Source of the DNA: Lepidodermella squamata
Lineage: Eukaryota > Animalia > Gastrotricha
DNA length: 64,000 bases
Reading direction: 5' to 3'
Assembly: GCA_047495785.1 (NCBI GenBank)
Contig: JBLDXI010000015.1
Coordinates: 4,030,001-4,094,000 of the forward strand
Shown: positions 1,901-64,000 of the stretch, one piece after another
Position numbering within the stretch: the stretch's first letter is position 1
Layout: each line of letters begins with the position of its first letter
Notes under the pieces: model-generated
Seen by the model: the letters and a program-made list of their open reading frames with translations, nothing else
Databases searched by the model: none
What the model was told of the DNA's origin: nothing
Made by a program: the position numbers and the translations under genes

Positions 1901-3351
1901 ATGGCTGATCAACCTGTAATCGACACGTTAATTTACCTTCCGGAAAGCCCTAACCGCCCGTTGAAAAACGACTCCACTCGAGCGTTTTGTTTGACAATGG
2001 AAATTTCGCTCGAACTCCTGAAAACTTGCCCGCCGAGCTCCAGCTTGATCGATTCCGCTATTTCCAAATGCAGCAATCTACCTAGCAATTTTGAAGATGA
2101 ATTTTTGGTCGAGTCGTTTGATGAAGTCACAAAACCTCGCTGCTACTCCGCATGTTTCAACAAACTTAACGACAACCGTTGCGTCGACTCGATCGATGCG
2201 GTTCAAAGTGTAATTCGCGAAAATCGTAAAAACATTCCTTTCCTCATTTTTCTTTCGCGAAACTGCGGTGGGCAATTTGTTTCGATTGTAATTAGTGGCA
2301 GCGATAATTTCTTCATCGTTGAGTCTGGCCTGGCTTCAATAACAAAAATCAATTCCATCTCAAACTTGGTATTTCGTCTCGGAAAATTGTGGCCGATGTC
2401 CTCGGAGGATTCAACAGATTTGAACATTTTGGCGCTGAAAATGAAGGATGATGACGAGAGCGGCGAAGGAGCAGATGATCTGAAGGCGATCGTCGAGGCT
2501 CTCCGACTAGAAAATGACCGACTTCGAAGCCAACTCGCAATTATAAATCGAACCCTGGAAATCCCGAACAAGGTCTGAGGCGAAAAGCTTTGTCTTCATT
2601 ACCACCGCTCATTTCGATACCAGAAAATGCAGAAAGCCAAAAATTTCGGGAAGACACGTTCTATTGCCCGATTTGCCTTGAAATTCACTCGGAAGAATTT
2701 GTGTTTTTCATTTCTAATTGCCCGCACCGATTTTGTCGCGCCTGCTCGTTGAAATTCGCTCAAACCGCCGTCGGAGAGCGCTTGATTCCAGTTCGTTGTC
2801 CCGTTCAAGAATGCCGAAGTGAAATTGGCGTTTCAGATCTGGAACTAATTCTTCCACCTGATGATCTCGCCCGGTTGATTAGCTTTACGTTGGACCAAGC
2901 GTTGACAGATATGAATTACGTTCGCTGCCCACAGCCAAACTGTCATGGTGTTGTTGAGCTGTTAGCCCCTCGCCAGAAATTTACCTGCCCGATATGCGCC
3001 TATCAAATGTGTACTGATTGCCGTCGTCGTTGGCATTTTGGCTACTCCTGCGATGGGAAAGCTGATTGGCTGGAGGAAGACCGAGCCGCAGCTTGTCTAC
3101 CCCGCCAGCCAGTTGCTGATAACAAAGCTCAATTCCGCGAGTTTTACAATGCCAAGCAGCTTCAAACCTGTCCGAAATGCGGTCAAATTGTCGAGAAAAC
3201 GGAAGGCTGCAACCACATACCTTGCCGATGTGGCTGGGATTTCTGTTACCTTTGTGGCGAATCGATTCAGTTCAGCCGCAACGGGTATTCGAAGCATGCG
3301 TGCCAAGGTCCCGCCGCTTCTGCTGCTTCAATCCGTTCACTCCGTTTCTGA
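1901..3351 (+). CDS. Gene A1: degenerate VTD-like (pseudo-DUB) domain + coiled coil + RBR E3 ligase (RING1-IBR-RING2), split by a -1 frame break at about 2518-2578
   Basis: ORF 1901-2578 aligns by eye with the gene B DUB domain. ORF 2590-3351 has RING1 (CPIC..CPHRFCRAC..CPVQEC), IBR (CPQPNC..CPIC..CTDC..WH..C) and RING2 (CPKC..EGCNHIPCRCGWDFCYLC). The second ORF has no ATG before RING1, so the two ORFs are probably one gene. Confidence 0.8.
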
Positions 3352-3622
3352 TATCACATTTTTGAAAAATCAATTCGCTAATTAATTGCTCAGTAATTTT
3401 TAACGGTTTCATCGATAACCAACAATTATACCCTAATTTTTCTTTCACGTCTTGTGCCATTTTCAGTCTTATATGTGCCAATATCGGCCAAGCCATTCTG
3501 TGCAAAGTTGCCTCAGCTTATCTTAGCATCTTAACAAACCTTACAATTTTACCGATTATGAAATAAAAAATCGCAATATTTTTTCTTAATTTGTAGGATT
3601 ATTAGTCTTTTTTGCTGTTTCG

Positions 3623-5349
3623 ATGGCTAATTTCAGCGGAAGGTTTTCGGGCACTGTGTAAGTTATATTTTTTGCGAAGTTTGAGGTAGTTTATTAGGCA
3701 AAATTAACCGGCAAAATTTCAAACAAGCTTCAGATTTTAGAAATTTTCTGAATTTGTTTTTCAAGCGTGAAAAAATCCGGCGCATTGTAGATCGTTCCAT
3801 GCTCAAATTCCAGAAGGCCTTCAATTTATTAGTAGATTCGATAGTTGGAATATTCTATTATTACTTCTGTTTGACTATAGGAAGAATTTGATTAGCTTCA
3901 ATAGCGAAGAGCGTAAGGAAGAAAAGCTGTATTCAAGCTCGTCTCGACGCACCGCTGAAGTTTTGGAGTTCCCTAGAACTCCCCCAGGCCTGCCAATGAT
4001 TGATCGAGTTGAAGCCGAACGAAGCCAGTACGATGTAAACAGTGAATCCGCTTGCACTCTGATGGCTACAGAAGCGATTCTAAGGTTGCTGAGTGAGGAT
4101 GAAGCCACAGGCAACATGACTCGACCGACTCGACAAATTTTGGAGGAAATTCTTGACACCTGTTCGAACGTCAAATGCGACCATCTAGCTGTTCAAGACC
4201 TCGTAGGCGGTAGCGTTTCTCGCTATTCAAAAGGCTTGAATTTCCACAAGGAAGAGCAACTCCCACTGGAGGATATTCGAAAACTTGCAAAGCTGGTTGC
4301 GAGAGCTGAAGATCGTGGTTCGTTTGCTTTATTGCTCACAAAACCACCTGAATCGATTGCGTTAATCGTCCAATCCGCGACTCGCATCATCGTTTTCGAT
4401 TCGCATCGCCGTCCCCATACTTCAGGCGCTTATTTCGCTGTTGGAAATTCAATGCCGCTGATATTGAAGGAAATTCAATCGATTTGGCCGATCACCGACC
4501 CAGGAATCGGCTACGGAGCGGCTTTACAGTTGGATATGCTTAACACCCTTCAGTTTGCAGTTTTGACGAGAAAGCCGATTCCTCTTGAGCAGCTGCCTGC
4601 GCTTGATCTGTTGCCATTTCTTCATTCTGGCTTGGAGGGTAAAGTTTCGGCGTTGAGTAAGCAGGTCTCCGATCTATCCAGAGAGCTTAAAACTGCTCAG
4701 GTAAACAATTTGACCGCTAACAAGTAAAAATAGGGTTGATTATCAAATTTCCTGAATTTTCCAAAAAATTGCTCAGAATTGAAAACTTTGCCATGATTTT
4801 CAAAAAAATTGAATATATTAGATAAAACGATCATTTCCGAATTCAAACCCATTTTCGTGCTTTTTCTTGCAGTCTCAAATCGTCCAGCTGACGGAACAGA
4901 ATGCTAATATGGTTTCTGAGTTATCGCGATTTTTTACCAGTCTTGTGCGTGTTCAAGCAACATCAGCAGCGAACAATCTCGAAGCGATTAACAAACTCGC
5001 TCAAGATTTCAATTTTCCTCTCAACCGAGAAGTAGTGGCTCCGACGAGTGTCCTGCTGACCCCGACCCCACCGCCAGCTGCCGAGGCACCCATCAGCCGT
5101 TTCAAATGTTGCCAATGCGAGAAGGTCATGTCAAAAGAGTACGTCTTCAGCATGTCGACGTGTCCTCACGAGATGTGCCGCCCTTGTGCTGGTCTATTCA
5201 TCGGCGGGAAAATTCGCGATCGCAGTTATCCGATTTCGTGCCCGATGGCGAAGTGCCGCAAAAAGATGGACGCCGACGATATTGTTCTGGTTTTGACTGA
5301 AGAGCAAATGGCGAAATTCAGCGAACATCAACAACGATTTCAAGTCTGA
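3623..5349 (+). CDS. Gene B1: VTD/herpes-tegument-like deubiquitinase + coiled coil + single RING1-type zinc finger
   Basis: Exons 3623-3657, 3881-4700, 4873-5349 are joined in frame by GT-AG introns. Motifs: RSQY..SACTLMA (Cys codon 4053-4055), LLLTKPPE, FDSH (His 4404-4406), heptad region, CCQC..CPHEMCRPC..CPMAKC. Confidence 0.85.
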
Positions 5350-5477: not shown

Positions 5478-7180
5478 ATGGCTTCTCTGCTTAGAAAAAA
5501 TGAACCTTTCCTATGTTTGAAATGCCGTAATATGTCGAGTTTTGAGGACATTTTCGAATCGTCGAATTGCCGGCATCAGTTTTGTCGTAGCTGCGTCTCA
5601 ACCTTTCTACTCGACCATCACCTGCTACGCTGTCCGATTTACCCGCAATGCAAGGCGGAAATGTCGCGCCACGACGCTGCTCTCGTGATCTCGTGATAGA
5701 ATTCTGTACATCGGATTTCACTGGTTTCGAGCTCGAGTTCGCGTCTGACGAACCTGGCCGCGAATCGCCAAGTTTGACACCAGCTGAGCCTGAAGCCCTC
5801 GATTGTGGTATATGTGGTCTGGTAGCCTCGATGGAAGATTTATTCGAAATTTCTACTGTTTGCTCGCATAAGATTTGCCGTGTTTGCTCAGCTTCGTTGC
5901 TGACAAATTCTCCTTATTCAAGTGTAACTAATTGTCTGGTTCCTGGCTGCTTGGTCAAATTTGAGCCGGATCGCGAAGATTTGCTATTCCAGTTTGTTGA
6001 TTTGACGCTGACCCCTCCTCCGGAAACTTTCTCCTGCGAGATTTGCTTGACGACCAAAGACATTTTCGACGTGTTTAAAATTCGCGATTGTCAGCACCAG
6101 ATTTGCCGCGAATGTGCTCGCGATTACATCCGCTCGCTGACTGCCGATATGAAGGAGATGGCGTGTCCTATGCCTTCTTGCAAGGTTAAAAAAAATAGCT
6201 TCATTTTTTTAAATTTTTATCAATTAATTCTTTCATTTCTTCTATAACTAATATATCATAATTTAAATGAATAAAACAAAACTAATAATACCGAAATTAA
6301 TTAATTAACCCCTCCCCCCCTCCAGTGAATACCCTCCAGTGAATACCGGAGGGCTAGGTAATTCTGGACTAAACCATTTCGAGGTTTAGATTCAGTCTCA
6401 ATTCAGAAATTTATGATACCTAAAACTTATCTGCAAAATTTGAAGATTTTACGATTTTGTACCTGATTTTTGGTGATCGGAAACATCTTTTAATAAATTT
6501 GGGCAATTAGCGGGTAATTTTGGAGGCTCATTTGCATATGGATTGGCTTTGTGTGCTTTTAAATAATTTGTATTGAGTTGGGCCAAATTTCGGAAAAATT
6601 GCATCATTTTTTTGAAAAATTGAGATTTTTCGGTACATTCAATACTTTATAATATATTTGAAAATTTAAGGGGGTGCTAACACTGGAAGATGCGGAAATG
6701 GTTGTCCAAGCCGATGAGATGAAGCGCCTTATTGACATGCTGCTTAAAGCCGCTGTCACCGACTGCTTCCATTGCCCGAAGCCAGACTGCCCCGGCCTGG
6801 CTGAGATGGTCGCACCTCGCGTTCTTTTCATCTGCCCAGTTTGCAACTACCACATGTGTACGCAATGCAACGCTGACTGGCATGCGACAGTCACCTGTGA
6901 TGAGTACGCGAAATGGCGCGAAGAAAACGGAGTTGCGGATGCTCGATTCGATGACTACGTCCGCGATTGGAAGGTCCAGGTTTGCCTGAATTGCAGGCAG
7001 GGCGTCGAAAAAACCGAGGGCTGCAACCACATCATTTGCAGTTGTGGAGCTCAGTTTTGGTAAAATAACCTTCTTCAACGTAATAATTCCTTATTTAATA
7101 CTTTTTCTCATTTCAGCTATCTATGCGGAAAGCGTACCCTCAAAGTTGACTGGTCAAAACACGGCAATTGTCAGTTGTAA
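5478..7180 (+). pseudogene. Gene C1: poly-RING RBR E3 ligase, frameshifted near 5690
   Basis: Exons 5478-6184, 6671-7059, 7117-7180 (spliced RING2 ...GAQFCYLCGK). Net 7 nt shorter than C2 at CTCGTGATCTCGTGAT, giving a stop at 5696. Confidence 0.8.
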
Positions 7181-7440: not shown

Positions 7441-9018
7441 GTCCCAGAGGCAACGTTTTGCCGGCTCGGATTAGATCGGCAACCACCTCAAGACACCCAT
7501 AATGGTAATCAAATAATTTGCCGGAGTGAGAAGTGGTCAGGTCAGCAATCACCTTGGAGAGCTCGAAGCTCGAACACCCGCCGGTATCTGCCGCGTGGGT
7601 CGCGATTTGCTATCAATTTTGGAACTTTTTTTTCCTTCATACGAAATGGCTTTGAATTGATCATCAAAATCGATATCGCCGTTCTCTTGATACTCAACCT
7701 GGGTCACGAAAGAATGCGTCGAGGTACCTCGGATGAAAGAGGGTTACATCGAAAAGAGACATGTCGCCGTCCGTCGGCGAAATTGTTGAATTTCAATTAA
7801 TTGAAATATTCAAATTCAAATTAATAATTCAAATATTCAAATGATCAAATATTCAAATAATTCAAATTAATTGAATTATTTTGACGGCAAAATAAGATGT
7901 GGTGGCAGGGAGTTGACTATGAACATGAACACGTCGTGGGCGTGGTGACGTAGTCGACCATGGCCGTCGGGTACTGCTGCCTGACCAAGGTCAGCGATGC
8001 CGTCTTCAGACAAACCAGGGATCGGTAGAAAAGAACCATTGCCTATCTGCGAAAATATATATATATATAGTTGGAGCCCAGATTTCCCGTCACCTGATTT
8101 TCCGTCTGACGGGAAATCGCGATATATAAATATTTAGGAGCGACTTGGACCCGTGGAGTGCAATTACATGCAAAACTACCTAGATTTCCCGTCAATTTTG
8201 ATTTCCTGTCAGGATTTTCGTGGAACCGCAGAAGACGGGAAATCGGGCGGGTTCCACACTAGAAAAAATTAACCCCTGATCAGGGGTCAGCTGTTTAAAC
8301 CGTTTTACTGATCAGCATGAAAACGGGACAACCCCTGATAATCGCAGACGCCAGCTGATAATCCATGCCATTTTCATGCTGATCAGCATGACTTTGCTGA
8401 TCAGGGGTCAAAAGTGTGCATTCGCTAATTAAACACGTGTGCATATGCAAATTTGGCTGCATGTTCAATCCAGGCTTGCGTCGGAAGGTCCATATTTTCG
8501 AAAAAGCAAATTATTTCACACGCGAACTCTATTACTTCAGCTGTTAACTCGAATTCTACTTATCAGCGAGTCGCCTTTCAGCCTAAAAACTTGAGGGCCA
8601 CCACTGATATCTGTCTGCCAAGCTAATTGTATTTATAAAGAACTATTTCTTTTTTTCAACTTTTTGTTCCGGTTCTACTTGCTTTGCCTCAATAACAGTA
8701 GTGCTATTTGCCTCTGTTAGTTTTCTCCAATTCGTAAGTTTTCCCCGACTTCAAGTGCTGCCAAATTTCGTTTTTAGTGATTATTTCCTTTTTAAAGTCA
8801 CTTTAAATTCACTTTTCATTCAGGAAGTATAAATTAGTATACTAAACTTTTTTTCCAGTTTTCCCGATCCGAGAATTTGGGCTCAAAGTCCAAATTTTGC
8901 CTTGTAATATTTTCTGAAATAAAAACTTTTTTCCTTGACATTTTCTTTTCTTTTCGACCTTGCGGTTCGGAATTAAATCTAAATTTTATTGGCCCATCCT
9001 TTCTTCTCTTCTTTCTCC

Positions 9019-11166
9019 ATGATCACCGTTTCTAATACGGGTGATCTTCTAATGCGTTTCGACGGTGAAGGCGAAATGCCTGATCCACACAGTGTGTCGC
9101 CTACTGCCCCGTCCGCAACGCCGCAGCTTGCTGAGTTCCTGATCCAGGCTGGTCCTCAGCCTAGTACTAGTGTCCCCAAAAAAAATAAAGGTGCAAGCGC
9201 TATGAAGTTAGGCTCGCAGGTTGACTCGACGTCCCTGTTAACAAAGAGCGGGATCGGTTCAAGTTTAGGGGTTTCAAGCGCTTCTCAGTTAGACCCGAGA
9301 GTTGACTCGACGTCCTCTGCGGCTGGGCTCGGTTCAAGCTTTAAGGGGCCCTCTCCCACCTCAGGTGAAACTGTTAAACGGAAGTCTGACAGCTCACCTG
9401 ACAGTAAGGTACGCAAGATAGCTTCAACAGTGAGGCTATCTGCATCTTCCAACGAGGAGTCCGATGCTGTCGTCGAGAACCAGGAGATGGATGCCGAGGA
9501 TCAGGAAGAAGGTCAGCTCGTCGACCCAATCGGTGATCTGAGTAGCAGCGACCCCGATACCGACGGCGACGATGACGAGGATGACGATGAAGACGAAGGT
9601 GAAATGGAGTGGCAAACTGTCAATGACTCGTCCAAGTCCAGGTTCCGTATCGTGATAGTCGACGGAATATCGCCGATTTTCTCGACCATCTACATGTGCC
9701 TGAGAGAGCTGAATCGCGTGGCCCCAGACGTGAAACATGTTCGCGTCTGGGTGTATCCCCGTGGTGCGTTTGGCATGCTCTGCAAGGACTTGGCCAGCGT
9801 CACCGCGGTCCTCAGCAAGGCCAACTGGCCTGAGGACGCCTTTGGTGGGAGAGCCCGACCCCATAGGCCATCCAAGGTAGAAGTGGATGAGGCACCAGGT
9901 GCCAAGGCGGTGTTAGAAGCGCAAGTTCCAAGCGGCGAGCAAGCGGCACGCATGGAAGCTCGAGCCAAGCATTTGGACGAAGACCGGCGTAAAGCCGTGT
10001 GCGTCAACTTCTTCGACGGGGCCTCTGTTGACGACATCCTCGACGGTTGGGAAGACGTCGTAGATCAGGTCTGGCCTATCAAAGGCACTACGACGTGCTT
10101 CGGGGTTCTCTGCAAATCGGTGCGTCTCTGCGAGGAACTCGTGGCCAGAGGGCGCGATTTCCTTGGCCTCCGCATAGCCGCCAGGGTGTGGCGTTCCGAC
10201 CCAGAGGTAGAGATATGTGGCAGGTGTCTCAACATCGGCCATCTCACTGGGAACTGTCGAGCGGCTCTCCGGTGTTCTACCTGTGGGCAAGTAGGCCATG
10301 AAGGCAGTAGTTGCAAACAGCAGGCGAAGAGGTGCGCCAGATGCGATGGCAATCACTCCGGCTTCTACCGAGGTTGCCTTATCGTGAAGAACGAGGCCGA
10401 GCGTCGCCGCAAAGCCGATGAAGCCGAAGCCCGAGCCATTCGTAACCGAAGTACCGGAGATGCCAACCTCCGTAATGGCATGTCGTTTGCAGGAGCAGCC
10501 GGAGGTGGATACGCACAACCACCACCAGTACCACCACCTGTACCACCACCTGTACCACCACCTGTACCGCAACCAGCACCACCACCTGTACCGCAACCAG
10601 GACCACCAGGATTCAATGGAACCCGGCCCTACCAGAGACCGGCGTCTCACAACAACCACCAGAACGAGTCAACGCTAGCACCGGACGAACGAAGCGAGCT
10701 AACCACTCTACGGTTTAGCGTAGCCGCACAGGCGGCTGAAATTGATCGGCTAAACAGTTCTGTTGAGCGGTTGACGGCTGCCCTTGAGAAGTTACTCAAC
10801 CAAGGTCCTTCGATGCCAGCAATAGTACCACAACCGGTCGCACAACCGATTCCGCTCCAGGAAATGGAAGATCGTCTATTTGCAAGGATAATGGATGCGT
10901 TCAGCCGATGCAAGAACGCAGGCGATATGCGGGCCCAAGCATTCCCGCAGCAAGTCATTGCTCGCCCAACCATGTTGCCTTCGTCGAACATGGTTGTCCA
11001 TTCTCCTTCGCACTACAGCGTCGAGGGCCAGAATGCAGTACCTTTTCAATGGGACGCTGGCCAGCTTGGTCAAGCCATGGTGATCCAGCCGCAGTTCAGC
11101 CAACAGCCTACTTTCGTTCAGCGACCATTCTCTGGAGTGCCCCTTCAATACTCCAATAATGCCTAG
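9019..11166 (+). CDS. LINE ORF1 (gag-like nucleic-acid-binding protein)
   Basis: Three CCHC-type knuckles (CGRCLNIGHLTGNC, CSTCGQVGHEGSSC, CARCDGNHSGFYRGC), acidic tract, Pro-rich repeat, coiled coil. First ATG is at 9019. Confidence 0.9.
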   Translation: MITVSNTGDLLMRFDGEGEMPDPHSVSPTAPSATPQLAEFLIQAGPQPSTSVPKKNKGASAMKLGSQVDSTSLLTKSGIGSSLGVSSASQLDPRVDSTSSAAGLGSSFKGPSPTSGETVKRKSDSSPDSKVRKIASTVRLSASSNEESDAVVENQEMDAEDQEEGQLVDPIGDLSSSDPDTDGDDDEDDDEDEGEMEWQTVNDSSKSRFRIVIVDGISPIFSTIYMCLRELNRVAPDVKHVRVWVYPRGAFGMLCKDLASVTAVLSKANWPEDAFGGRARPHRPSKVEVDEAPGAKAVLEAQVPSGEQAARMEARAKHLDEDRRKAVCVNFFDGASVDDILDGWEDVVDQVWPIKGTTTCFGVLCKSVRLCEELVARGRDFLGLRIAARVWRSDPEVEICGRCLNIGHLTGNCRAALRCSTCGQVGHEGSSCKQQAKRCARCDGNHSGFYRGCLIVKNEAERRRKADEAEARAIRNRSTGDANLRNGMSFAGAAGGGYAQPPPVPPPVPPPVPPPVPQPAPPPVPQPGPPGFNGTRPYQRPASHNNHQNESTLAPDERSELTTLRFSVAAQAAEIDRLNSSVERLTAALEKLLNQGPSMPAIVPQPVAQPIPLQEMEDRLFARIMDAFSRCKNAGDMRAQAFPQQVIARPTMLPSSNMVVHSPSHYSVEGQNAVPFQWDAGQLGQAMVIQPQFSQQPTFVQRPFSGVPLQYSNNA
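10518..10610 (+). repeat. Coding minisatellite (CCACCACCTGTA)n encoding PPPV repeats in LINE ORF1
   Basis: Directly visible 12-bp unit repeated with variants. Confidence 0.9.
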
Positions 11167-14137
11167 TCTTAGTACACTCAGAAAAAGTAGAATCATCGTA
11201 ATCCAGTGGAATTGCCAGGGCATCAAGGCGAAAAGAGCTGAACTTCTCCACATTATAGAGCAATATGGGCCTCATGTCATTCTTTTAAACGAGACTTGGC
11301 TAAAGTTCGGCGAGAAATTCGACCTCCCTGGCTACACTGCTTTCCGCGTAGATAGATTAGGAGCGTACGGGCTAAACTGTGGCGGCGTCGCAATCTTTAT
11401 TAGTCAGTCAAAGCCAATACTAGATTGTGCCGAAGTAAAGTTTGCGCCAGCCTCTAGAGGCGAGTGGCTTGCAGTTGAGCTGCTAGTAGGCGAAGTCAAC
11501 GCCTCAGCGAGACTTACGATTGCCACAGGGTACAATCCTTCACATAGCCCATTAGACACATCTTTCGTTAGAGAGGTCTTGAGTGATCCGTCTACAAACT
11601 CGATCTTCGCTGGCGACTTGAACGCCTGGGCGGAAGAGTTAGGTTGCGCGGACTGGAACGTTCAGCGAACGGGAAGCGGGGGGCTTCTTTCGGAGTACCT
11701 AAAATCCTCCTCTGTGGTTTTGCATAGCTCGCCAACTGCTCCCACGCGGTTCAGGGAAGGTCACGTGTCGCGAGTCTTAGATGTATGGCTCAGTTCACTG
11801 GCTGCTGATAAGTGTTTCAACCGTGCGCCTGCTGTTCTAGATTGCTATCGAAGCGATCATGCCGTCACTATCGCGGGCCTCACACTCGTGCTCCCGGAGC
11901 GGAACTCCTGTTCACCGTTGGCCAATGCCTCGGTGCCGGCAGCCGCTCGGGACGTTCGTTTCGATTTTTTGAACGCCGACTGGCCTGAATACCAGAGAGT
12001 ATGCGCGGAGAAGATAGCGCCAGTCGTTCGCCCAAAAGGCGGGGACTCGGTCAGGGCGCTGGACGTCTTCGCCGCAAGTATCTCCGAGGTAATAATGAGT
12101 AGCGCGAAAACCACGCTAGCTCGTGTGCCGGTGGCTAAATTGCCTAAGGTACGACTCAGCCATGCTGTCAAGCGGGCTATCGAGGCCAGGAATCGGTGTG
12201 ACAAGAAAAATCGAAATGAACGCTCTGCTGCGTCTAAAGCGGCTTTAAATGCTGCGACACGGCAGGTGGCGCGAGAGGTCGCGATAGAGGCGGATAAAAA
12301 ATGTCGGCGGCGGTTGAACCACATAGCACAGCTTTTTCAGGCGCAGCAAGCTGCCCTGGCGTGGCAACACGCACAGCGTATTTTGGGGGAATCGAAAGGC
12401 TCGCAACGCGTGATCCCCACCCTTAACTTAGCGAACGGGACGAAGGTGACGTCAAACCCAGAGAAGGCGAGGGTTTTTGCTGAAAATTGGGCGCCGACGT
12501 TCCAGGCCGCGCCTCGTAGCTCACCGCATCAGGCGGACCAAGAATTTTGGGACTCGATCGACCAAGCATGCGAGGTAGACGAGGAGCTCAATGCCTCTCT
12601 AACAATACCAGATAAATTAGACGTCATGATTTCTAGGAACGCCTTCAACTCCCAGCTTGCCCGGTTGAAGCTTAAAGCTCCCGGGGAAGATGGGATCCTC
12701 AACCCGTTGATTAAGAACGCTCCCCCACCTCTCCTAGAGGCTATCCTTCTCCTGTTTAATTTATCTTTGAACGCCGGCTATCTGCCAGCTGCTTGGAAAA
12801 TTGGAATTGTGGTACCGGTGCCCAAGGCGGGGAAATCGCAACGGTCCCTGGATGGGTATAGGCCAGTTTCCTTAACCAGCTGCATGGCAAAGCTTCTGGA
12901 GGCCGTCGTGGCTGGGTTCATTCTTGAGTTCTGCTTGCGGAACAAGATTTTGACGCCAAGCCAAGTCGGGTTCCAGAAGTGGCTGTCAGTCTTGGATGCC
13001 ATCCTCAGACTTATGCATGACATCACAGACGGATTCGTGCATAAAGATGAGTTGGGCAGACCTGATAAATTAACTACTGTTGTGGCGTTCCTGGACTACA
13101 AGGCAGCTTTCGACTCCATTTGGCACAACGGTTTACGAATGGTCCTTAAAGGCCTTGGCCTACCCGTAGCCGTTGTGCGGTGGATTTCGGACTTCTTACG
13201 CGACAGGCGTATGAAAGTAAGGGTAGGAGACAGTTTCAGTGAAGACGTCGAGGTAGCTTGCGGAGTCCCTCAGGGATCTCCTTTATCCCCGATACTCTTC
13301 ATCATCTACACTTCTTCGTCCCTCCCAGCGGAGGTCGACAAGGACGACGCGGTAAAAAGAACTGCCGCGGCGGCATACGCCGACGACCAGGCTGTGTGGG
13401 CTACAGGGCGACCGGCCCCACTCGTCACTGCTCGTGTCCAAGCGGCACTTCGGGTCACAGAACGCTGGTCTCAGCGCTGGAGACTTGACCTGAACCCGAG
13501 GAAGTGCGAGTGGGTCGCATTCGGCGCCAACGTCAACCTCACAGCTGGTCAACTCCAGTTGGGAGGCATCTGCCTGCCTAGAGTGCAACAGTTCAAGTAC
13601 CTAGGTGTTTGGCTGTCCAAGCACTTGTGCTGGACGCCGCACTTAGAGCACGTCAGCGCACGAGCCCTTCCTCGTATTTTCGCCCTTTTTCGTGGCAGGG
13701 TAAAGACTCACCCCACCTTGGGTCTCCTGTTCTACAAGAGCGTCATCCGGCCGCTGTTGGAATTCGGTGCCCCGGCGTTCGCCAACTCGAAGCCACAGTT
13801 CATCGAAAAACTGGCGGTCTTAGAACGGCGGGCCCTTAAGATCATCTTGGGTCTCCCACGCCGGTGCCCGAATGAGATCTATCAGCGGCGGTTGAAGGCC
13901 ACTTTTCGGGAGTTCCAGCTGATCGAAGAACGTTTGTCCACCCTATCGTTCAACTGCTTCAACAGGGCGCTTGAAGCAGGTAGCGTGCTAGGCGAAATAG
14001 TTCGTCAGAGTCGCGATAGGCCCGTGCCGGAGAGTAAATCCCCAGTGCGTTTCTTTCTTGACCATCTATTGGGAGCTGGGCCTCTACCTTCGGTTCGATC
14101 GTCCTTTGATCGACTTCCAGCGATCCTAGCAGTTTAG
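11159..14137 (+). CDS. LINE ORF2: APE endonuclease + reverse transcriptase
   Basis: QWNCQG, LNETWL, AGDLNA, SDH (endonuclease); APGEDG, YRPVSLTS, FLDYKAAFDSIWH, GVPQGSPLSP, YADD, YLGV (RT). Overlaps ORF1 by 8 nt. Confidence 0.97.
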   Translation: MPSLSTLRKSRIIVIQWNCQGIKAKRAELLHIIEQYGPHVILLNETWLKFGEKFDLPGYTAFRVDRLGAYGLNCGGVAIFISQSKPILDCAEVKFAPASRGEWLAVELLVGEVNASARLTIATGYNPSHSPLDTSFVREVLSDPSTNSIFAGDLNAWAEELGCADWNVQRTGSGGLLSEYLKSSSVVLHSSPTAPTRFREGHVSRVLDVWLSSLAADKCFNRAPAVLDCYRSDHAVTIAGLTLVLPERNSCSPLANASVPAAARDVRFDFLNADWPEYQRVCAEKIAPVVRPKGGDSVRALDVFAASISEVIMSSAKTTLARVPVAKLPKVRLSHAVKRAIEARNRCDKKNRNERSAASKAALNAATRQVAREVAIEADKKCRRRLNHIAQLFQAQQAALAWQHAQRILGESKGSQRVIPTLNLANGTKVTSNPEKARVFAENWAPTFQAAPRSSPHQADQEFWDSIDQACEVDEELNASLTIPDKLDVMISRNAFNSQLARLKLKAPGEDGILNPLIKNAPPPLLEAILLLFNLSLNAGYLPAAWKIGIVVPVPKAGKSQRSLDGYRPVSLTSCMAKLLEAVVAGFILEFCLRNKILTPSQVGFQKWLSVLDAILRLMHDITDGFVHKDELGRPDKLTTVVAFLDYKAAFDSIWHNGLRMVLKGLGLPVAVVRWISDFLRDRRMKVRVGDSFSEDVEVACGVPQGSPLSPILFIIYTSSSLPAEVDKDDAVKRTAAAAYADDQAVWATGRPAPLVTARVQAALRVTERWSQRWRLDLNPRKCEWVAFGANVNLTAGQLQLGGICLPRVQQFKYLGVWLSKHLCWTPHLEHVSARALPRIFALFRGRVKTHPTLGLLFYKSVIRPLLEFGAPAFANSKPQFIEKLAVLERRALKIILGLPRRCPNEIYQRRLKATFREFQLIEERLSTLSFNCFNRALEAGSVLGEIVRQSRDRPVPESKSPVRFFLDHLLGAGPLPSVRSSFDRLPAILAV

Positions 14138-48670: not shown

Positions 48671-49257
48671 AGTTCGAATGATTGATCGCTTGTTTTAGTA
48701 ATATCAAATACACATTACTTGATATCCCAGGAATGAAATGAAAACTATGACCCAACTCTCAACTTTTTGCGCTGAATACGATGGTGCAAAGCATTTGGAG
48801 AAAAAATTGAGTAGAATGCATGTTTTACCTGTCCGAAAATACCAACTTTTGGGGGGTATCCGAATTCTAGAAAATTCAAAGTCGACGATTCCAGGCCGAG
48901 ACTAAGGGTACATACTGGGACTATTGAGATGTACCTCCAGTAAAAATATCACGCAATGAATCACGGCAATACTTATAATATGAAAAAACCAGTATTATGC
49001 TTTACTGTGGACGAATTATCTTTTGTCACAGATACCTAATAGTCTCTGGTGCTTCAATCTATGGTGAGAGACACCTAGTATATGTGATATGAAAGTAAAA
49101 TTGTACGTCATGGCGCGCCAGCGAGACTTTATTCTTCAAACGAATTTTTATTTTTGCGACCTCATCTAAATATACTTGTCACCATTACGATCAAATGGAG
49201 AGCTTTATTGAGTAAATTGAAACGATTATACTGTTAGGTTCATTTTTTATTCCGCGA

Positions 49258-50321: not shown

Positions 50322-50946
50322 CAAATGAAAGATAAATCTTATGGTGAAGTTGCTTGCTTTTCAGGGCTTGGTTGATGTCTTTCGAAGCGAGTGCCGTTAA
50401 GATGAGTAATTTAGCGGATTCCATTGTCCAGTTATAATCCATTATATAAATACATTTTAGGGCGATTGCTTTGGAAGATGTGAACCTCTGTTCTATATCA
50501 GGGAAGCTGGAAACCCCAGCTACCGGCAAGGCTACCGGACGTTGGAAACCTTTGATTAACCCGCTAATAATCATTTATTATTGTAAACAGTTATTTGAAT
50601 ATAATTTGAAAGAAGCGGTGTCGCATTGCGTGGCCCCGGGTCCTCCAATCCAGATCTCTATGAGCATAAGAAGTGGTCAGTTTTTTGTTCTTCTTAGCGA
50701 AAAATGATGATTCAAATTCAAAAATACAACTTCCTTGATAACGCGATAATAAATTCCAAGAGGGAGTAATCTCAAAATCGGTGCTCATAATTTATCGGCA
50801 AAAGATAATTACTGACAACGGCTTCGAAATTCCAAGAACAACTAATGACGTAGGTGTTAGGTTGTTTTTATCGCGACACTTACGTATTATGAACGCACAG
50901 TATGTCTTATTTAGGAATATATTATTTTCCGGTGATAGGACAGAAA

Positions 50947-53178: not shown

Positions 53179-55085
53179 ATGAGTCGTGATGACCGCATGC
53201 ATTCTTCAAGCTCGTTCAGTAATCACTCTATGACTGGTGCTTCCCCACCTAATCCTTGGATTGAACGAGTTCAACTACAACGAAGTCAATACAGCGTTAA
53301 CAGCGAATCGGCTTGCACTTTGATGGCTGCTGAGGCCACTCTACGACTTTTAAGCACTGATGAATTCACTGGCCATCTAGCCCAGCCAACCGTCAACACT
53401 TTGGAAAAGATTCTCGATACGAGTTCAAACGTTAAATGCGACCATCTAGCTGCGCAAGATGTGTTCGACGGCGGCGTTATTCGATATTCGATGGGGTTGG
53501 TATACCACTCGGAAAAGCAAATTCTCCTAAAAGATATCGCTAAACTTGCCAAGGTAGTGACAAAATCGCTGGATAATGGCCCGTTCGGTCTATTAATAAT
53601 AAAACCGCCTGAATCAATTGCTTTGATCGTACAATCCGCGACTCGATTCATTTTATTCGACTCACATGGCCGACCCCATACTTCTGGTGCCTACTTCTCT
53701 GTTGCAAATTCTATTACTTCGATTTTGAGTGAAATTAATTCGATTTGGCCCGTCACACATTGCGATGACAGCAGCGGTTCGTCACTGCAATTTGAGATGC
53801 TGAATACACTTCAGTTTGGGGCTATTACTCGGAAACCAATTCCGATTCGCCAGCTGCCTCATCTGGATCTGTTGCCAGTGCGACATTCTAGTTTGGAGGC
53901 TAAGGTTTCGGATTTGGCGAAGCAGGTCTCAACACTTATGAAGGAACTTGGTGTCGCTCAGGTAACATATTTAATTATTAATTTTTATTTAATCGAGCAT
54001 TGAAAATTGCGAAGTTTTTTGAATTTGCAGCAATTTTCCTTAAAATCCTAAAGGGGCTCATAATTTCAAAAAGCTGAATACTGAGGGCTTAATACGGACG
54101 ACGAGCAAGTTTCACGTAAAAGTAAACGGGGGTGTGACATTTGGGGTTCTTTATACTTGATATACGAGTCGACCGTCTTTCTGAGTATCGCGGCGATCAT
54201 GGTAATATTTTCGATCACGAGTTTGGAACGCAATTGAAAATTATTAGTCATGAGAGGCATGTTTAAGTTTTATTTGCACGCGGTACTATTTTAGGCCTGG
54301 GGGCTTAAATCGGGAAAGGTCTTATTATAACCCTGAGGATTTAGTCCGGATTTTAAGGTATTCAACAGTCAAACCATCCATTTACCTCATTTGAGATTCA
54401 AGAATTTGAAATGTACACAGGAAAAACCTGAGCTGAAACCGATGGTTGTTACTGGGTTTTCAAAGTATCACCCGTTTGGACCAAATTGTTCAGATATTTT
54501 TGTTTTTCAATGAAATCACCTCCCCTTCAATTTCATCGATGCATCCTCGAATTCTGCTACATAATGGAGGTGATATTTTCATTTATCTTACAGCTGCGAA
54601 TCGTTGAGCTTGAAAGCAGGAATGTGAGCATGGTTTCAGAACTGTCACGATTCTTAAACAGCCTTCTGCAAGTTCAGACCGCCTCAGCCGTTAACAATAC
54701 CGAAGCGATCAACAAATTGGCTCACGAATTTAACCTTTCGTTGAACACAGCGAACGCCGCTTCTACTTCAGCCACGCCGACAACAGCTGAAAATATGCCC
54801 GAAAAACCGATTATTAACTATTTCCATTGCTGCCGATGCCGTCAGACTATGTCGAAAGAATACGTCTTCAGCGTGTCGACCTGCTCTCATGAAATGTGCC
54901 GCGAGTGTGCTGGTTTGTACATCGGACATAAAATTGTGGCCATGAGTTATCCAATTGTGTGCCCAGTCCCAGATTGCCACCAGGCAATGAACCCCGAAGA
55001 TATCCGTCTTGTTTTGAATGAAAATCAAACGGCATTATTCAACAGGGATATAGAAGGATATCATCACAGGCAGCATTTTCGTTAG
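53179..55085 (+). CDS. Gene B5: VTD-like deubiquitinase + coiled coil + RING1-type finger; native 5' end disrupted, remaining ORF intact
   Basis: Exons 53179(or 53005)-53961 and 54594-55085; SQY, SAC and FDSH retained. Confidence 0.7.
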
Positions 55086-55225: not shown

Positions 55226-57586
55226 ATGGCATCAAGTCGACCAAGAACTGGCAGTCTGGACAGCCCTCGTCCCGAATCTGCTACCAAAAATTACCGGCAT
55301 TTTCTCTGTTTGAAATGTCGTAAATTGTCGAGTTATGAGGATGTCTTCGAGTCGTCTGATTGTGGCCACCTATTTTGTCGACATTGCGTGACATCTTTCA
55401 TCCTCGACCGCTACCTTTTGCGCTGTCCAATGTACCCGCGTTGCCAGGCTGAACTGTCTCGCGAGGAAGTTGCTTTAGTCATGGATGAGAGCGACATTTT
55501 GGACTTCTGCACCTCAGATGTTGCTGACGGCATTGAACAAGAATGGAACCCGCAGGAGGCTGAAAAAGAACAAAGTGTCGATCCTGATGCAACCAAGTGT
55601 CGCTTTAGCGACGATCTTTTCCAAATCTCTACCGTTTCTGCGCATCAAATTTGCGCTGCCACGGGCCATAGTGTGGCAGCCATGCCGGCAGCAGCTAAAA
55701 ATAAGCCTGAAAAACATATTATTAGCAGTTTCGATTGCTGCCAATGCCGTAAGACTATGTCGAAAGAATACGTCTTCAGCATGTCGACCTGTTCTCATGA
55801 AATGTGCCGCCCCTGCGCTATCATTTACATCGGTGACAGAGTTTGGGACAAGCAGTATCCAATCGGGTGCCCAGTCCCAGAATGCCGCAAGAAAATGGAT
55901 CCAGAAGACATCTATCTTGTGTTGGATAGAAAACTAATGGAATCATTCAAACCGGATCTACAAGCGATCAACAAATTGGCTCACGAATTTAACCTTTCGT
56001 TGAACACAGCGAACGCCGCTTCTACTTCAGCCACGCCGACAACAGCTGAAAATATGCCCGAAAAACCGATTATTAACTATTTCCATTGCTGCCGATGCCG
56101 TCAGACTATGTCGAAAGAATACGTCTTCAGCGTGTCGACCTGCTCTCATGAAATGTGCCGCGAGTGTGCTGGTTTGTACATCGGACATAAAATTGTGGCC
56201 ATGAGTTATCCAATTGTGTGCCCAGTCCCAGAATGCCACAAGATAATGGATCCTGAAGATATTTACCTTGTGTTGAATGAAAATCAAACGGCATTATTCA
56301 TAGATGGATATCATCAATGGCAGCACCGTCACATTTTTGAACACGGCTCTGAACAAGAATGGAAACCTCAGGAGGATGAAGATGAACAAAGTGTGGATCC
56401 CGATGCATCCAAGTGTGGCATTTGCGACGTTGTCAGTTCGAGCGACGATCTTTTCGAAATTTCTACCGTTTGTGCGCATCGAATATGCCGCGAATGCGCT
56501 GCGACGTGGCTGCGTTTGGCTCCAAACAGCGTCATAAGCATCAAATATTGTCCGATTCTGGATTGTTCAATCACATTTGAGCAAAGTCGGGGGGAATCAT
56601 TGCTCCAATTCGCTGATTTGCTGCCGACTCCACCTCCGGAAGAATTCACGTGTGAAATCTGCTTCACGACTCAGGTCATCTTCGACGTCTTCCAGCTTCG
56701 TGATTGCCAGCACCAGATTTGTCGCGATTGTGCTCGTGAATACATCCGCTCGCTGACTGCCGACATGAAGAAGATGACGTGTCCTATGACCGATTGCAAG
56801 GTTCGAAAATATTATTTTTATATCTTTAATTGTAATTTGTAAAAATAATTAATTATCAGATTTTACAGATAATTTTACGGATCTATATTTTCAGCTTTAC
56901 TGAAATAACACCTTAAATTTTACTCGCAAAATCGCACAGAACCGAAAGAAATTATTTAGAGCGTTGCTAAATTTAGTGCTGGAGCCTCAATTTTAATTAA
57001 GAAAATATTACTGCTCTTGCTTTTATTTTTATGCTTTAATTATTTATTTATTCCCTTTTAGGGAGAACTGACACTTCAAGACGCCGAAACTGTGGTCGAA
57101 GCAGATGAAATGAAGCGCCTTACTGACATGCTGCTGAAAAAAGCTGTCATCGACTGCTTCCATTGCCCAAAGCCGGACTGCCGCGGCCTGGCCGAGATGA
57201 TCCCACCTTGCGTTCGTTTCATCTGCCCCGTTTGTAACTATAACATGTGTACGCAGTGCAACGCTGACTGGCATGCGACGGCCACGTGTGAGGAGTACGC
57301 GAGGTGGCGCGAAGAAAACGGAACTGCCGATCAGCGTTTTACTGAATACGTCCGCGATCGGAAAGTACAGGTTTGCCCGGCTTGCAAGCAGGGTGTCGAG
57401 AAAACCGAGGGCTGCAACCACATGACATGCCGCTGTGGGGCTCATTTTTGGTCAGTTACTTATTGAATTGTCAACAATCACACAACTTGAAAATGTCCTT
57501 TTAGTTACTTATGTGGCAAGCGGTTCCAGATAGCTAATTGGGAACCACATGGCTCTTGTCCTTTGTTCCGTTATGATAATATATGA
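55226..57586 (+). CDS. Gene C5: poly-RING RBR E3 ligase (5 complete RING1-type fingers + remnant, IBR, RING2), intact
   Basis: Exons 55226-56800, 57062-57450, 57505-57586 in frame. Confidence 0.88.
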
Positions 57587-59868: not shown

Positions 59869-61603
59869 ATGAGTTTCCCGACCGAATATAGTTTTCACCC
59901 TTTGCCTTCTGATTCTGAGGACTGGACAACTGCTACTAGAAAGAAGAGCTCAAGGATAAATAGTGATGAACGCCAGTATTCTTCAAGCTCGTCAAGCAAG
60001 CGCTCAACGGCTATAGCTTCGTCATCTAATTATTGGATTGAACGAATTGATATACAACGAAGTCAATATAACGTCAACAGCGAATCAGCTTGCACTCTGA
60101 TGGCTGCTGAGGCTATTCTACGACTCTTAAGCACCGATTAATTCTCTGACCATCTAGTCCAGCCAACCAGCGAGACTTTGGAAGAAATTCTTGATACATG
60201 TTCAGACGTTAAATGCGACCACCTAGCTGCTCAAGATCTGTTCGACGGAAGTATTTCTCGATATTCGATGGGGTTGGAATACCACTCGGAAAAGCAAATG
60301 CCCCTTCAAGATATCGATAATCTTGCGAAGTTAGTAAATAACTTGCTGGATAGTGGCCCGTTCGCTCTATTGTTGACCAAACCGCCTGAATCAATTGCTT
60401 TGATCGTACAATCGGCGACTCAATTCATTTTATTCGACTCGCATCGCCGACATCATACTTCAGGTGCTTATTTCGCTATTGCCAATACTATCACGTTGAT
60501 TTTGAATGAAATACAACTGATTTGGCCGGTTACGCATTTCGATGACGGCTTCGGCTCGCAAATTGAAATGCTGAATACTCTCCAGTATGGAGTGATTTCT
60601 AGGAAAGCAATTCCTCTTCCCCAGCTGCACTATGATGTGTTGCCCATGCGACATTCTAGTTTGGAGGCTAAATTTTCGGATTTGGCGAAGCAGGTCTCAA
60701 CACTTACAAAGGAACTTGGTGCCGCTCAGGTAAGATGACCTTCGAGAATTTTTTAATAGATATTAAAATTCAGCGTGTTTTACGAAATATGCGAATATTT
60801 CCTTGAGTTTTCAACTGTTTTCATGCTGCCTGATAATTGCCCTCAATATAATTATAAATTTATATAAAATTATTTAAAATTAATATTCGCTATAACCGGA
60901 GAGTCGATGGGATCTGGTTCGATTATTATCGGAATTTTACCCGGTTTGACCGAATTTTTTTCCAATATCTTATTTTCCGTCTAGTGATAGCCTTTCTTTT
61001 AATCACACCGAAAATTGTAGACTTATGATAGAAACTCTATTACTCTGTGGATCTTTTATACAAGATTTCAATCATCAGCAGCTGACGAGGACGGTCAAGG
61101 AATCTTCCAAGCTGAATCTTGTGCTTTTAATCTTTTCAGTCGCAAATTGCTGAGCTTGAAAGCAAAAACGCGAGCATGGTTGCTGACCTGACGCGATTTT
61201 TCAACAGCTTTCTGCGAGTTCAGGCCGCCTCATCCGCTAACAATGCCGAGGCGATCAAGAAACTGGCTGTTGAATTCAACCTTCAACTGAACCCAGCTGC
61301 TTCCACATCAGCTACTCCGGCTGCTAAAAATGCGCCCGAAAAAACCTAATTATTAGCACTTTCGATTGCTGCAAATGCCGTAAGACTATTTCGAACGTCT
61401 TCAGCATGTCGACCTGTTCTCACCAAATGTGCCGCCCATGCGCTAGCATTTACATCGGTGACAGAATTTGAGACAAGAAGTATCCAATCGTGTGCCCAGT
61501 CCCAGAATGCCGCAAGAAAATGGATCCGGAAGATATCTATCTTGTGTTGGATGAAAAGCAAATGACATCATTCAAACCGGATCTACAGCGCTATCGTTTA
61601 TAA
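59869..61603 (+). pseudogene. Gene B6: DUB-coiled coil-RING pseudogene
   Basis: GAA>TAA at 60139-60141; exon 2 (from 61140) has indels near 61345 and 61390. Confidence 0.88.
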
Positions 61604-61726: not shown

Positions 61727-62478
61727 ATGGCAGCAAGTCGACCAATTACTGGCAGTCGTCTGAACAACCCTCGCGAATCTGCCAGAAATTACCATTTCTC
61801 TCTCTCTCTCTCTTTCTCTGTTTGAAATGCCGTGAAATGTCGAGTTTGGAGGATGTCTTCGAGTCGTCTAATTGCGGCCATCTATTTTGTCGACGTTGCG
61901 TGACATCTTTCATCCTTGACCGCTACCTTTTACGCTGTCCGATGTACCCCCGTTGCCAGGCTGAACTGTCTCGCGAGGAAGCTGCTTTAGTCCTCGACGA
62001 GAGCGACGTTTTGGACTTCTGTACCTCGGACGTAGCTGGTGGTTTTGAAGAAGAATCGAAGCCATCTGTTGCTGGAACAACCGACTGCTTCAATTGCCCG
62101 AAGCCAGACTGCCGCGGCCTGGCTGAGATGGTGCCACCTTGCGTTCTTTTCATCTGCCCAGTTTGTAACTACCACATGTGTACCCGATGCAATACTGACT
62201 GGCATGCGACGGTTACCTGCGAAGAGTACGCGAGGTGGCGCGAAGAAAACGGAAGAAAACCGATTATTAGCACTTTCGATTGCTGCCAATGCCGCAAGAT
62301 TATGCCTAAAGAACACGTCTTCAGCATGTCGACCTGTTCTCATGAAATGTGCCACTCGTGCGCTGGCTTGTACTTCCGCAAACAAATCAGGGACAAGCAG
62401 TATCCCATTACGTCCCCACTCCCCGAATTCCACCAGATAATAGATCCAGAAGATACCTCTATCTTGTGTTTGGATTGA
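61727..62478 (+). pseudogene. Gene C6a: chimeric RING-IBR-RING(B-type) fragment, out of frame with its ATG
   Basis: ATG 61727 is out of frame with ORF 61822-62478 across a (CT)8 tract. Domain order is first RING, IBR, gene-B-type RING, with no RING2. Confidence 0.8.
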
Positions 62479-62636
62479 AATCAGATGAAAACATTCAGCC
62501 AGGATCGTTTTTAAATTTCTCGACTTGACAAGTTCGAATGATTGATCGCTTGTTTTAGTAATATCTAATTACCCATTTCTTAATATCCCAGAAATGACAA
62601 CTATGACCAAACTCTCTGCATCATTTAGGCTTTTAA

Positions 62637-64000
62637 ATGGCAACAAGTCGACCAAGCAATGCGGCAATCTGTTTTTTTTCGGCGTTGCGCGACACCTTTC
62701 ATCTTTGACGGCTATCTGTTACGCTCTCCCATGTACCCGCATTGCCAGGCTGAACTGCATCGCGAGGAAACGGCTAGAGTCATAAACGAAAGCGATATTT
62801 TGGACTTCTGCACCTTGGACGCAGCATTGAAACCGTCACAGGCTGACAATAAACGAAGCGTCGATCCCAAAACATCCAAGTGTGGCATGTGCTATGTTGT
62901 TAGTTCGGGCGACGATCTTTTCGAACTTTCTACCGTTTGTTCGCATCATATTTGTCGCGAATGTGCTACGAAGTGGCTGACAGGTGCTCCAAGCAGATTC
63001 TCAGCAAGCATTAGATATTGTCCGATTCCGGACTGTATAATCAGATTTGAGCAAAGTCGGAGGGAACCCTTGTTCCAATTCGCTGACTTGCTGCCTTCTC
63101 CGCCTCCGGAAGAATTTCCGTGTGAGATCTGCTTCACGACCCAAGTCATTTTCGAAGTCTTCAAACTTCGCGATTGCCAGCACCAGATTTGTCGCGAATG
63201 TGCTCGCGAATACATCCGCTCGCTGACTGCCGACATGAAGAATATGACGTGCCCTATGGTCGGATGCATGGTACGTAAGTATTATTTCTAAATCGCTGAT
63301 AATTTATATTAATAATTAATTAATAAATCAATCAAATTGTTATCGATAATTTCTGAGTATTATCATTTCAATATTGATTTTACAAATCAGTGATTGTTCC
63401 GATATTAGCAGTCTAGGAAGCCTGCGTTGAACGTTGCCACCTAGCTGAAAACTATAGCAGAATCACAGGGTAAACGGGGAACCAGTCAAGAATACATAAG
63501 CAAAGAATCAGAAAAACTTAGCATGAGCACGCCTAAATTTAGAGTTAGAACGTCAATTTTAGTTGTGAAAACGTTACGGCCCTTAGTTTTTTTAATGCTT
63601 CGCTTGTTTAATTCTACTTTTTAGGGAGAACTGACACTTGAAGATGCCGAAACTGTCATCGAAGCAGATGAAATGAAGCGCCTTACTGACATGCTGCTGA
63701 AAAAAGCTGTCATCGACTGCTTCCATTGCCCGAAGCCAGACTGCCCCGGCCTGGCCGAGATGATCCCACCTTGCGTTCGATTCATCTGCCCAGTTTGTAA
63801 CTATAACATGTGTACGCAGTGCAACGCTGACTGGCATGCGACGGTCACCTGCGAAGAGTACGCGAGGTGGCGCGAAGAAAACGGAGCCGCTGATCAGCGG
63901 TTTACTGACTACGTCCGCGATAAGAAAGTCCAGGTCTGCCCGGCTTGCAAGCAGGGTGTCGAAAAAACCGAGGGCTGCAACCACATGACATGCCGCTGTG
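62637..64000 (+). pseudogene. Gene C6b: RBR gene with damaged first RING; 3' end runs off the window
   Basis: Native ATG 62637 is out of frame. ORF 62659-63270 splices to 63624 (IBR, RING2 GCNH); it could still be translated from 62659. Confidence 0.7.

Follow-up and report, generated by a model that had tools for sequence, protein, structure and literature searches.

Tandem VTD deubiquitinase and multi-RING RBR ligase genes in Lepidodermella squamata, a likely product of the splitting of one fused gene

We analyzed a stretch of 64,000 nucleotides (nt) of Lepidodermella squamata (contig JBLDXI010000015.1, positions 4,030,001-4,094,000 of the forward strand), here called the window, which carries a tandem array of genes for ubiquitin-removing and ubiquitin-attaching enzymes; all coordinates are window positions. 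The window is eukaryotic and animal-looking: it has spliceosomal introns, its mobile elements are two long interspersed nuclear elements (LINEs) and one with a Crypton-like recombinase, and its minus strand carries five Cys-loop ion-channel-like genes. The array is built from three types of gene. Gene B encodes a VTD-type deubiquitinase domain, a coiled coil, and one RING1-type finger. Gene C encodes three to five RING1-type fingers followed by an IBR domain and a RING2 with a catalytic cysteine, the arrangement of an RBR ubiquitin ligase. Gene A joins a VTD domain that has lost its catalytic triad to a coiled coil and a RING1-IBR-RING2 module.

The original prediction, made from the DNA letters, described a co-oriented cassette repeated about six times, and this description was borne out in part. 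The motifs SQYxVNSESACT and FDSH are both present in six co-oriented B copies (6/6), and a six-frame scan of the window with a VTD profile recovered these six copies, a weak match at A1, and nothing else. The repeated blocks are 70-90% identical in DNA in a self-comparison of the window, far above chance. As predicted, B is directly followed by C in every unit, with a distance of 124-140 nt between the B stop and the C start (6/6). Unit 6 has two C-type starts, the second lying 123 nt after the first C copy of that unit, which brings the number of C copies to seven. The gene copies and the sequence preceding the first of them are as follows.

1671-1900, plus strand: putative promoter, a non-coding stretch conserved ahead of A1 (87.5% identity between 1671-2027 and 18432-18790)
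1901-3351, plus strand: A1; VTD and coiled coil in 1901-2578, RING1-IBR-RING2 frame in 2518-3351
3623-5349, plus strand: B1; intact VTD, coiled coil, and RING1-type finger, 443 residues; introns 3658-3880 and 4701-4872
5478-7180, plus strand: C1; poly-RING RBR with an 8-nt duplication near 5690 that shifts the frame, stop after 72 residues
18432-19150, plus strand: A2 remnant with the conserved upstream stretch; VTD and RING1 deleted, remainder out of frame
20087-22053, plus strand: B2; intact, 440 residues; introns 20122-20465 and 21277-21576
22193-23914, plus strand: C2; intact, 406 residues, three RING1-type fingers, IBR, and RING2; introns 22931-23377 and 23767-23820
34184-38847, plus strand: B3; intact, 446 residues; a single intron of 3,323 nt
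38982-41803, plus strand: C3; intact, 572 residues, four complete RING1-type fingers, IBR, and RING2
45742-47433, plus strand: B4; premature stop at 46546-46548, past the VTD domain
47559-48680, plus strand: C4; internal deletions, without IBR and RING2
53179-55085, plus strand: B5; frame open from an internal ATG onward, its native 5′ end missing at a LINE
55226-57586, plus strand: C5; intact, 681 residues, five complete RING1-type fingers, of which two were copied from the last exon of B
59869-61602, plus strand: B6; stop at 60139-60141 and further frameshifts downstream
61727-62514, plus strand: C6a; frameshifted mosaic of a first RING, an IBR piece, and a B-type RING piece
62637-64000, plus strand: C6b; 5′ end deleted, out of frame with its own ATG, RBR core open to the window end

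The promoter role of 1671-1900 is presumed; the similar stretch at 18432-18790 lies upstream of A2 and extends into it. Six of the 15 gene copies are intact (B1, B2, B3, C2, C3, and C5), one is doubtful (B5), and eight are broken (A1, A2, C1, B4, C4, B6, C6a, and C6b). Gene A does lie in the first two units, as had been claimed, but A1 consists of two frames that are out of register near 2520-2575, and A2 is a remnant in which about 40 codons of A are left before a deletion that reaches the IBR (an 83-codon open reading frame). A scan of all GT/GC..AG pairs for an intron joining the two A1 frames found none resembling the other splice sites of the window, as judged by eye. The three-gene A/B/C cassette of the original prediction was not retained, there being no intact A in the window.

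Contigs assembled from two sequencing runs, X1 and X2, were compared with the window; in such contigs rare forms are dropped and spliced leaders are invisible. Run X1 is presumed to be an RNA run, possibly of another strain or species; it holds 0.15 of the window's words, and exon joints are visible in it. Its contigs skip the C1 intron (GT..AG, 6182>6669) and both C2 introns (GT..AG, 22928>23376 and 23765>23820), show both B2 exon joints as loose ends continuing into the following exon and the B1 exon joint at 4700 as a further loose end, and cover parts of A1 as well. C2 has two alternative last exons that complete RING2, 23821-23914 and 23932-24000, the first of which is backed by X1 contigs; C1 has the second type only, and C3 and C5 have the first. 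The X2 contigs have the same letters as the window at the A1 frame break and at the C1 duplication, with zero differences over 5634-6187 of C1, and show a skip of 954 nt (2022>2977) matching the deletion in A2. Since X2 may come from the window's own source, all that this agreement rules out is an error of assembly. Over 2033-2573 there is also a second X2 contig, shorter by 2 nt and with 58 further letters that differ; in the A copy behind it both frames could be in register.

Comparisons by sequence and by predicted structure indicate that B is a VTD deubiquitinase with an intact triad, predicted to cleave ubiquitin chains. When B was searched against the PDB by sequence (phmmer), the sole match under E 0.1 was Wc-VTD1 (8ADB, E 1.4e-4), with the catalytic Cys and the F-D-x-H motif aligned; a B profile matched 8ADB at E 4.7e-5. 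The top matches in an Atlas search were Herpes_teg_N clusters (0.95-0.96), and the Pfam family Herpes_teg_N itself gave E 0.027 for B5 and no match for B1-B4. An AlphaFold model of the B3 VTD domain, built on a 71-row alignment, reached a predicted local distance difference test score (pLDDT) of 95.5. In Foldseek, all six matches of this model under 1e-3 were VTD or M48 chains, among them 8ADC (E 3.4e-10), herpesvirus M48 (2J7Q, E 9e-7), and the Helitron enzyme DrT1-VTD2 (8ADD, E 4.9e-6); superposition on Wc-VTD1 gave a root-mean-square deviation (rmsd) of 2.8 over 176 aligned residues. The triad residues C20, D135, and H137 are conserved in at least 90% of the 71 aligned rows. These data uphold the claim that the N-terminal domain of B has a VTD fold. 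The description of the enzyme as herpes-tegument-like holds for the fold, given the match to M48, but only weakly for the sequence, by which the closest solved enzyme is that of Waddlia (8ADB) rather than a herpesvirus one.

The linkage that B cleaves can be approached by analogy. Fungal, Naegleria, and Waddlia VTDs prefer K6-linked chains and have a common C-terminal helix, α9 (PMC9741609), and a further K6-specific VTD has been described (PMC10643670). The B model has a helix at 174-180 and a long helix at 204-232 after the VTD domain, and on our reading of the alignment of B with 8ADB the first of these appears to occupy the place of α9. RNF144A and RNF144B, which are RBR ligases, assemble K6 among other chains (PMC5640506). 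Because its nearest characterized kin are K6-specific, and in view also of the modeled helix and of the chains made by RNF144A/B, B may cleave K6-linked chains, a proposal that we hold tentatively and at slightly less than even odds.

After the coiled coil, B has one RBR RING1-type finger with a helical linker and then a stop. The finger aligns with RING1 of VTD-RBR fusions, helical linker included, and B ends at this point. By analogy with other RBR ligases, a lone RING1 would not be able to complete RBR catalysis, and docking on an E2 or on a target is the more likely role of this finger.

The N-terminal domain of A matched a profile of 110 VTD relatives, from which window sequences and 10 of 120 hits shorter than 150 residues had been left out, at E 4e-6, compared with 1.8e-3 for the best of 200 shuffles. 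At the triad columns Cys is replaced by Ala, Asp by Glu, and His by Gly, so that the triad of an active VTD is absent. A model of the domain (pLDDT 83.3) gave 8ADC in Foldseek at E 1.8e-6, with Z 16.2 and rmsd 2.8 over 168 aligned residues; having been built on a VTD alignment, it leans toward VTD. An alignment-free Atlas search returned papain-like C58 clusters at 0.93. By BLASTP the domain had no significant similarity to B (E 0.77), and a sequence search of the PDB gave no match. The RBR part of A is complete (IBR E 2.6e-18; RNF216 E 4.7e-14). On this sequence evidence the N-terminal domain of A is read as a triad-dead VTD, in line with the pseudo-enzyme twin of the original prediction.

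RBR ligases bind E2~Ub through RING1, and the RING2 cysteine takes up ubiquitin and passes it on (PMC7458406). That the array encodes RBR ligases with the GCNH cysteine in RING2 was confirmed, the motif being present in A1, the A2 remnant, C1, C2, C3, C5, and C6b. In C2, C3, C5, and A1 the cysteine aligns with that of RNF216 (7M4M), which reads Ala in 8EB0. A and C carry RBR modules with RING1, IBR, and RING2 in order, and transthiolation is predicted for them. Ahead of the IBR and RING2, C2, C3, and C5 have three, four, and five complete RING1-type fingers, respectively. The last exon of B has been copied into C3, C5, and C6a, where it makes up the inner fingers: C5 55962-56325 is 93.6% identical to B5 54703-55075, and a tree of the fingers mixes inner C fingers with B fingers. 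In C3 and C5 the copied fingers stay in frame.

We further examined where the RBR core of C belongs. It matched the A1 core best, at 149-154 BLAST bits and 36-37% identity. Against 25 outside RBRs, its best match was P0038, a VTD fusion, at 118-120 phmmer bits, with all others at 90 or less. A RING tree placed the B finger, the first C finger, and the fingers of the relatives P0004 and P0006 together (SH-aLRT 90).

Whether B and C form one transcript was assessed from the X1 contigs. None of the nine joints listed for X1 on unit 2 connects B to C, and one contig extends past the B2 stop into the spacer; we therefore consider that B and C are most likely separate mRNAs. In the bin 22081-22217 the mean depth agrees with a contig that stops near 22135 and no cover from there to the C2 start, a weak hint at separate B2 and C2 transcripts. 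Each C has its own aligned ATG, and a GT near the stop is absent in B2 and present just before the B1 stop. The short conserved B-C spacer suggests, at the level of sequence, an operon. An AG lies 5-15 nt before 7/7 C starts, with acceptor scores of -6.3 to 0.7; 15% of random non-coding windows reach 0, and a test for trans-splice acceptors at the seven C starts against such windows was not significant.

All 32 pairwise ratios of nonsynonymous to synonymous substitution (dN/dS) were below 1 (range 0.06-0.58), with two of the 32 bootstrap intervals reaching above 1 and several dS values saturated. The last exon of B had higher ratios (0.17-0.58) than the VTD domain (0.06-0.36). Eight broken copies among 15, beside purifying selection, fit birth-and-death evolution, and this part of the original prediction stands. 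The dN/dS values give no support for a pathogen arms race; the test is crude and pairwise and misses single selected sites, which may exist.

A VTD profile search of 1.84 billion representatives (E up to 1e-3) gave 120 hits. In Pfam, 16/120 have an IBR-family domain and 26/120 a UBA or CUE domain; in a quick VTD tree, all but one of the labeled members of the UBA-/CUE-VTD group fall in one clade. The named fusions among 20 hits looked up come from five Agaricomycetes, Endogone, Paulinella, and Mayorella. In the fused VTD-RBRs P0038, P0043, P0073, and P0022, RING2 deviates from GCNH (GCFH, ACNA, GCYH, and GCNK, respectively). No relative has more than one RING1-type finger among the 20 that carry one, although the RING1 profile was built partly from the same relatives and the count is not independent. 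The nearest kin of B are P0004, P0006, P0005, and the bdelloid-type P0002 and P0003 (Adineta ricciae CAF1141093.1); rotifers are not named in the available text of PMC9741609. P0004 and P0006 have exactly the B architecture and end 3 and 8 residues past the finger. In P0002 and P0003 a single chain holds two VTDs, the first degenerate and the second intact, and then a coiled coil, without RING or IBR. The B VTD forms a clade with these five proteins (support 100/98) in a careful tree, drawn without the long branches of the A1 N-terminal domain and the P0002 dead domain; the careful trees used 35/110 hit domains, the first VTD tree was a quick search, and hits found with B's own profile favor grouping with B. 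Among members of this VTD clade, A alone has IBR-RING2 in the same frame. No related loci were found in JGI metagenomes or viral contigs, and a phmmer-type search with B3 among longer proteins gave 0/2,065 candidates.

The original prediction knew of no VTD-RBR combination. This claim fell: Agaricomycete fusions are published, and in most Agaricomycete genomes a VTD and an RBR ligase are encoded as one fusion protein (Erven et al. 2022, PMC9741609). Of the conditions under which the prediction would count as refuted, that of an already widespread architecture thus holds in part. The same article leaves open what K6-specific VTDs and the fungal fusion do biologically. The literature searched, which was covered at the level of listings with most subscription papers outside its scope, yielded no split, tandem, or animal VTD-RBR form.

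Together, these data lead us to propose, with a probability of about 0.6, that the six B and seven C copies derive from one fused VTD/coiled-coil/RBR gene that split after RING1, and that their products form a predicted eraser-writer pair. We favor fission because B followed by C reproduces the domain order of the fusions, B ends after RING1, and the C core is closest to A and P0038. The ancestor would have been a gene like those of fungi and protists in which VTD deubiquitinase, coiled coil, and RBR ligase are fused. After its tandem duplication, one copy would have kept the fusion and lost the triad (A), and the other would have split into B and C at a point after the RING1 finger; C would then have gained extra fingers, with the RING exon of B being copied into C3, C5, and C6a. 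By inference from the family, the last RING1 of C would bind E2~Ub and hand ubiquitin to the RING2 Cys and on to the target, and B would cleave chains, perhaps K6-linked. With the RING1 of B catalytically incomplete, the B finger and the extra fingers of C may bind the same E2 or target, and such shared docking would bring eraser and writer together without a covalent link and with a tunable ratio. Where an intact copy exists, A could act as a ubiquitin-binding ligase.

Several observations weigh against this proposal. The RBR tree left the origin of C open at unresolved forks, and the fission origin is therefore something that we infer. The outside RBRs were few (25) and had been picked through A1 and the VTD search, and the best outside match of A1, P0141, has no VTD. 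The B VTD lies in its own clade (100/98), outside the fungal and protist fusions, and the VTD of P0038 is not in that clade. P0004 and P0006 come from short contigs (1,473 and 2,649 nt), whose ends may be artifacts. The fold scores of B are tied (Wc-VTD1, Z 18.6; Helitron VTD 8ADD, 18.0; M48, 17.6), so that the fold does not decide K6 specificity. Finally, B and C are both intact with native starts in only 2/6 units (units 2 and 3).

It is unlikely, in our estimate, that B and C are merely block-duplicated neighbors with different targets and that C stems from an unrelated RBR gene. Segmental duplication alone would preserve order and spacer, the adjoining ion-channel genes were multiplied too, and the unresolved RBR tree leaves room for such an origin. 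However, of the cores tested, those of A and of a VTD fusion are closest to the C core, fingers move from B to C without loss of the frame in C3 and C5, and the spacer length is kept between subfamilies with saturated synonymous sites. The fixed order and spacer in 6/6 units could also be taken to mean that splicing or read-through unites B and C as a single gene, giving ordinary VTD-RBR fusions with extra RING fingers. Fused relatives exist, a GT precedes the B1 stop, and contigs that drop rare forms could hide a minor fused form. The X1 joints on unit 2 nevertheless include both C introns and no B-C joint, a contig runs past the B2 stop into the spacer, every C has its own aligned ATG, and B2 has no GT near its stop; we consider a single gene very improbable.

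The original prediction placed the genes in cell-autonomous immunity, as a three-gene A/B/C ubiquitin-editing complex diversifying under pathogen pressure. Copy turnover, pseudogenes, and module shuffling, all present here, are typical of immune arrays, and the last exon of B has higher dN/dS than the VTD domain. K6 chains are also tied to defense against intracellular bacteria (PMC9741609). Against this, no dN/dS point estimate exceeds 1 in the 32 pairs (the crude pairwise test has two bootstrap intervals that reach above it), the window lacks an intact A, and the other animal VTD genes are male-germline genes (PMC9741609), a different role that fits fast turnover as well. We consequently regard the immune complex as doubtful. 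A more ambitious scenario, which we think quite unlikely, is that the animal took up a protist- or fungal-type K6-editing VTD-RBR (shared with bdelloids and perhaps horizontally acquired) and split it into co-transcribed genes; RING1 copying from eraser to writer would diversify target or E2 recognition, with the pseudo-deubiquitinase ligase as a third partner of a K6 defense module. Least credible of all is that the array is transposon cargo whose copies are decaying passengers. In PMC9741609, Helitrons harbor the majority of the non-viral VTDs from the first search round, and LINEs and a Crypton-like element occur in the window. Yet no helicase/Rep Pfam family was found in the 22/84 open reading frames scanned, the longest included, the Helitron Pfam family occurs in 0/120 relatives (best five families per protein), the B frames contain nothing besides VTD, coiled coil, and RING, and the genes contain spliceosomal introns, are spliced in RNA-like contigs, and are under purifying selection.

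The locus presents the parts of the fungal fusion as separate, spliced, and amplified animal genes, so that writer and eraser could be assayed alone and together, and it is a possible source of an animal K6-selective deubiquitinase with a matching ligase. The VTD-RBR pairing itself is known from Agaricomycetes (PMC9741609). New here are the animal host, the likely B/C split, the RING fingers copied from B to C, the dead-VTD form, and the VTD clade containing bdelloid proteins. The fusion, described from Agaricomycetes, is extended here to Endogone, an amoeba, and a rhizarian, as is the VTD family to bdelloid rotifers. The acquisition of three to five RING1-type fingers by exon copying from a neighboring gene would be an unusual route to varied ligase specificity. 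Were the more ambitious scenario true, the array would be a recombining K6-ubiquitin defense module that has no equivalent in model animals.

The units are interrupted by the mobile elements and ion-channel-like genes mentioned at the outset. The mobile elements are the following.

8983-14137, plus strand: apparently whole LINE with a gag-like zinc-knuckle frame and an endonuclease-reverse-transcriptase frame (GC 0.55 compared with 0.43 for the window)
15878-17366, plus strand: Crypton-like tyrosine recombinase, DUF3504 and Phage_integrase, in two frames
50953-53051, plus strand: reverse transcriptase of the second LINE (LINE at about 50.8-53.15 kb), which sits in the 5′ end of B5

B3-like upstream sequence lies on the far side of the second LINE (50596-50760). 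The five Cys-loop ligand-gated ion-channel-like frames, all intronless and on the minus strand (3-1133, 24132-25307, 28274-29425, 31292-32446, and 44004-44816), are interleaved and duplicated with the units; the last is truncated at its 5′ end. They encode about 390 residues with a very short C-terminal part, the two tested match Neur_chan_LBD at E 1e-18 to 1e-21, and the nearest database protein is 22% identical. Two small Cys-rich membrane proteins are encoded in tandem on the minus strand about 150 nt apart (26392-26853 and 26940-27335), with weak, below-threshold matches to CD225/dispanin (IFITM-like; E 0.12 and 0.14).

Among known systems, A20 and LUBAC-OTULIN couple deubiquitinase and ligase activity; their deubiquitinases are of the OTU class, with unrelated folds, and serve as an analogy only. 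Wc-VTD1 of Waddlia chondrophila (8ADB/8ADC), which is K6-specific, is the best solved match to B by both sequence and fold, with the triad aligned, but it is bacterial, about 20% identical, and without RING or RBR. Herpesvirus M48 (2J7Q; Herpes_teg_N) and the Helitron DrT1-VTD2 (8ADD) share the fold of B, whereas their sequence likeness is weak and their viral or transposon context is absent here. The RBR ligases RNF216, ARIH1/2, HOIL-1, and parkin have the same RING1-IBR-RING2 order and an aligned RING2 Cys (E 4.7e-14 for RNF216); in the genes described here, no Ariadne, UBA, or UBL domain was seen, and extra N-terminal RING1-type fingers are found instead. The bdelloid rotifer proteins P0003 and P0002 belong to the VTD clade of B (100/98) and combine a dead and a live VTD in one chain without RING or IBR, whereas here the dead VTD is in A and the live one in B. 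The Agaricomycete VTD-RBR fusions (Si-VTD and Sl-VTD) have a VTD of the same class by sequence (PMC9741609). Their order of VTD, coiled coil, RING1, IBR, and RING2 is that of B and C read consecutively, and A has it in one gene. An active VTD and an RBR in one polypeptide are not found here, the B and C frames being separate and A having a dead VTD and a broken frame. In the fungi the fusion gene has an active VTD and occurs once per genome (PMC9741609), whereas in L. squamata the same parts occur in an animal, as two genes in six tandem units, with three to five RING1-type fingers in C and a triad-dead fused sister in addition.

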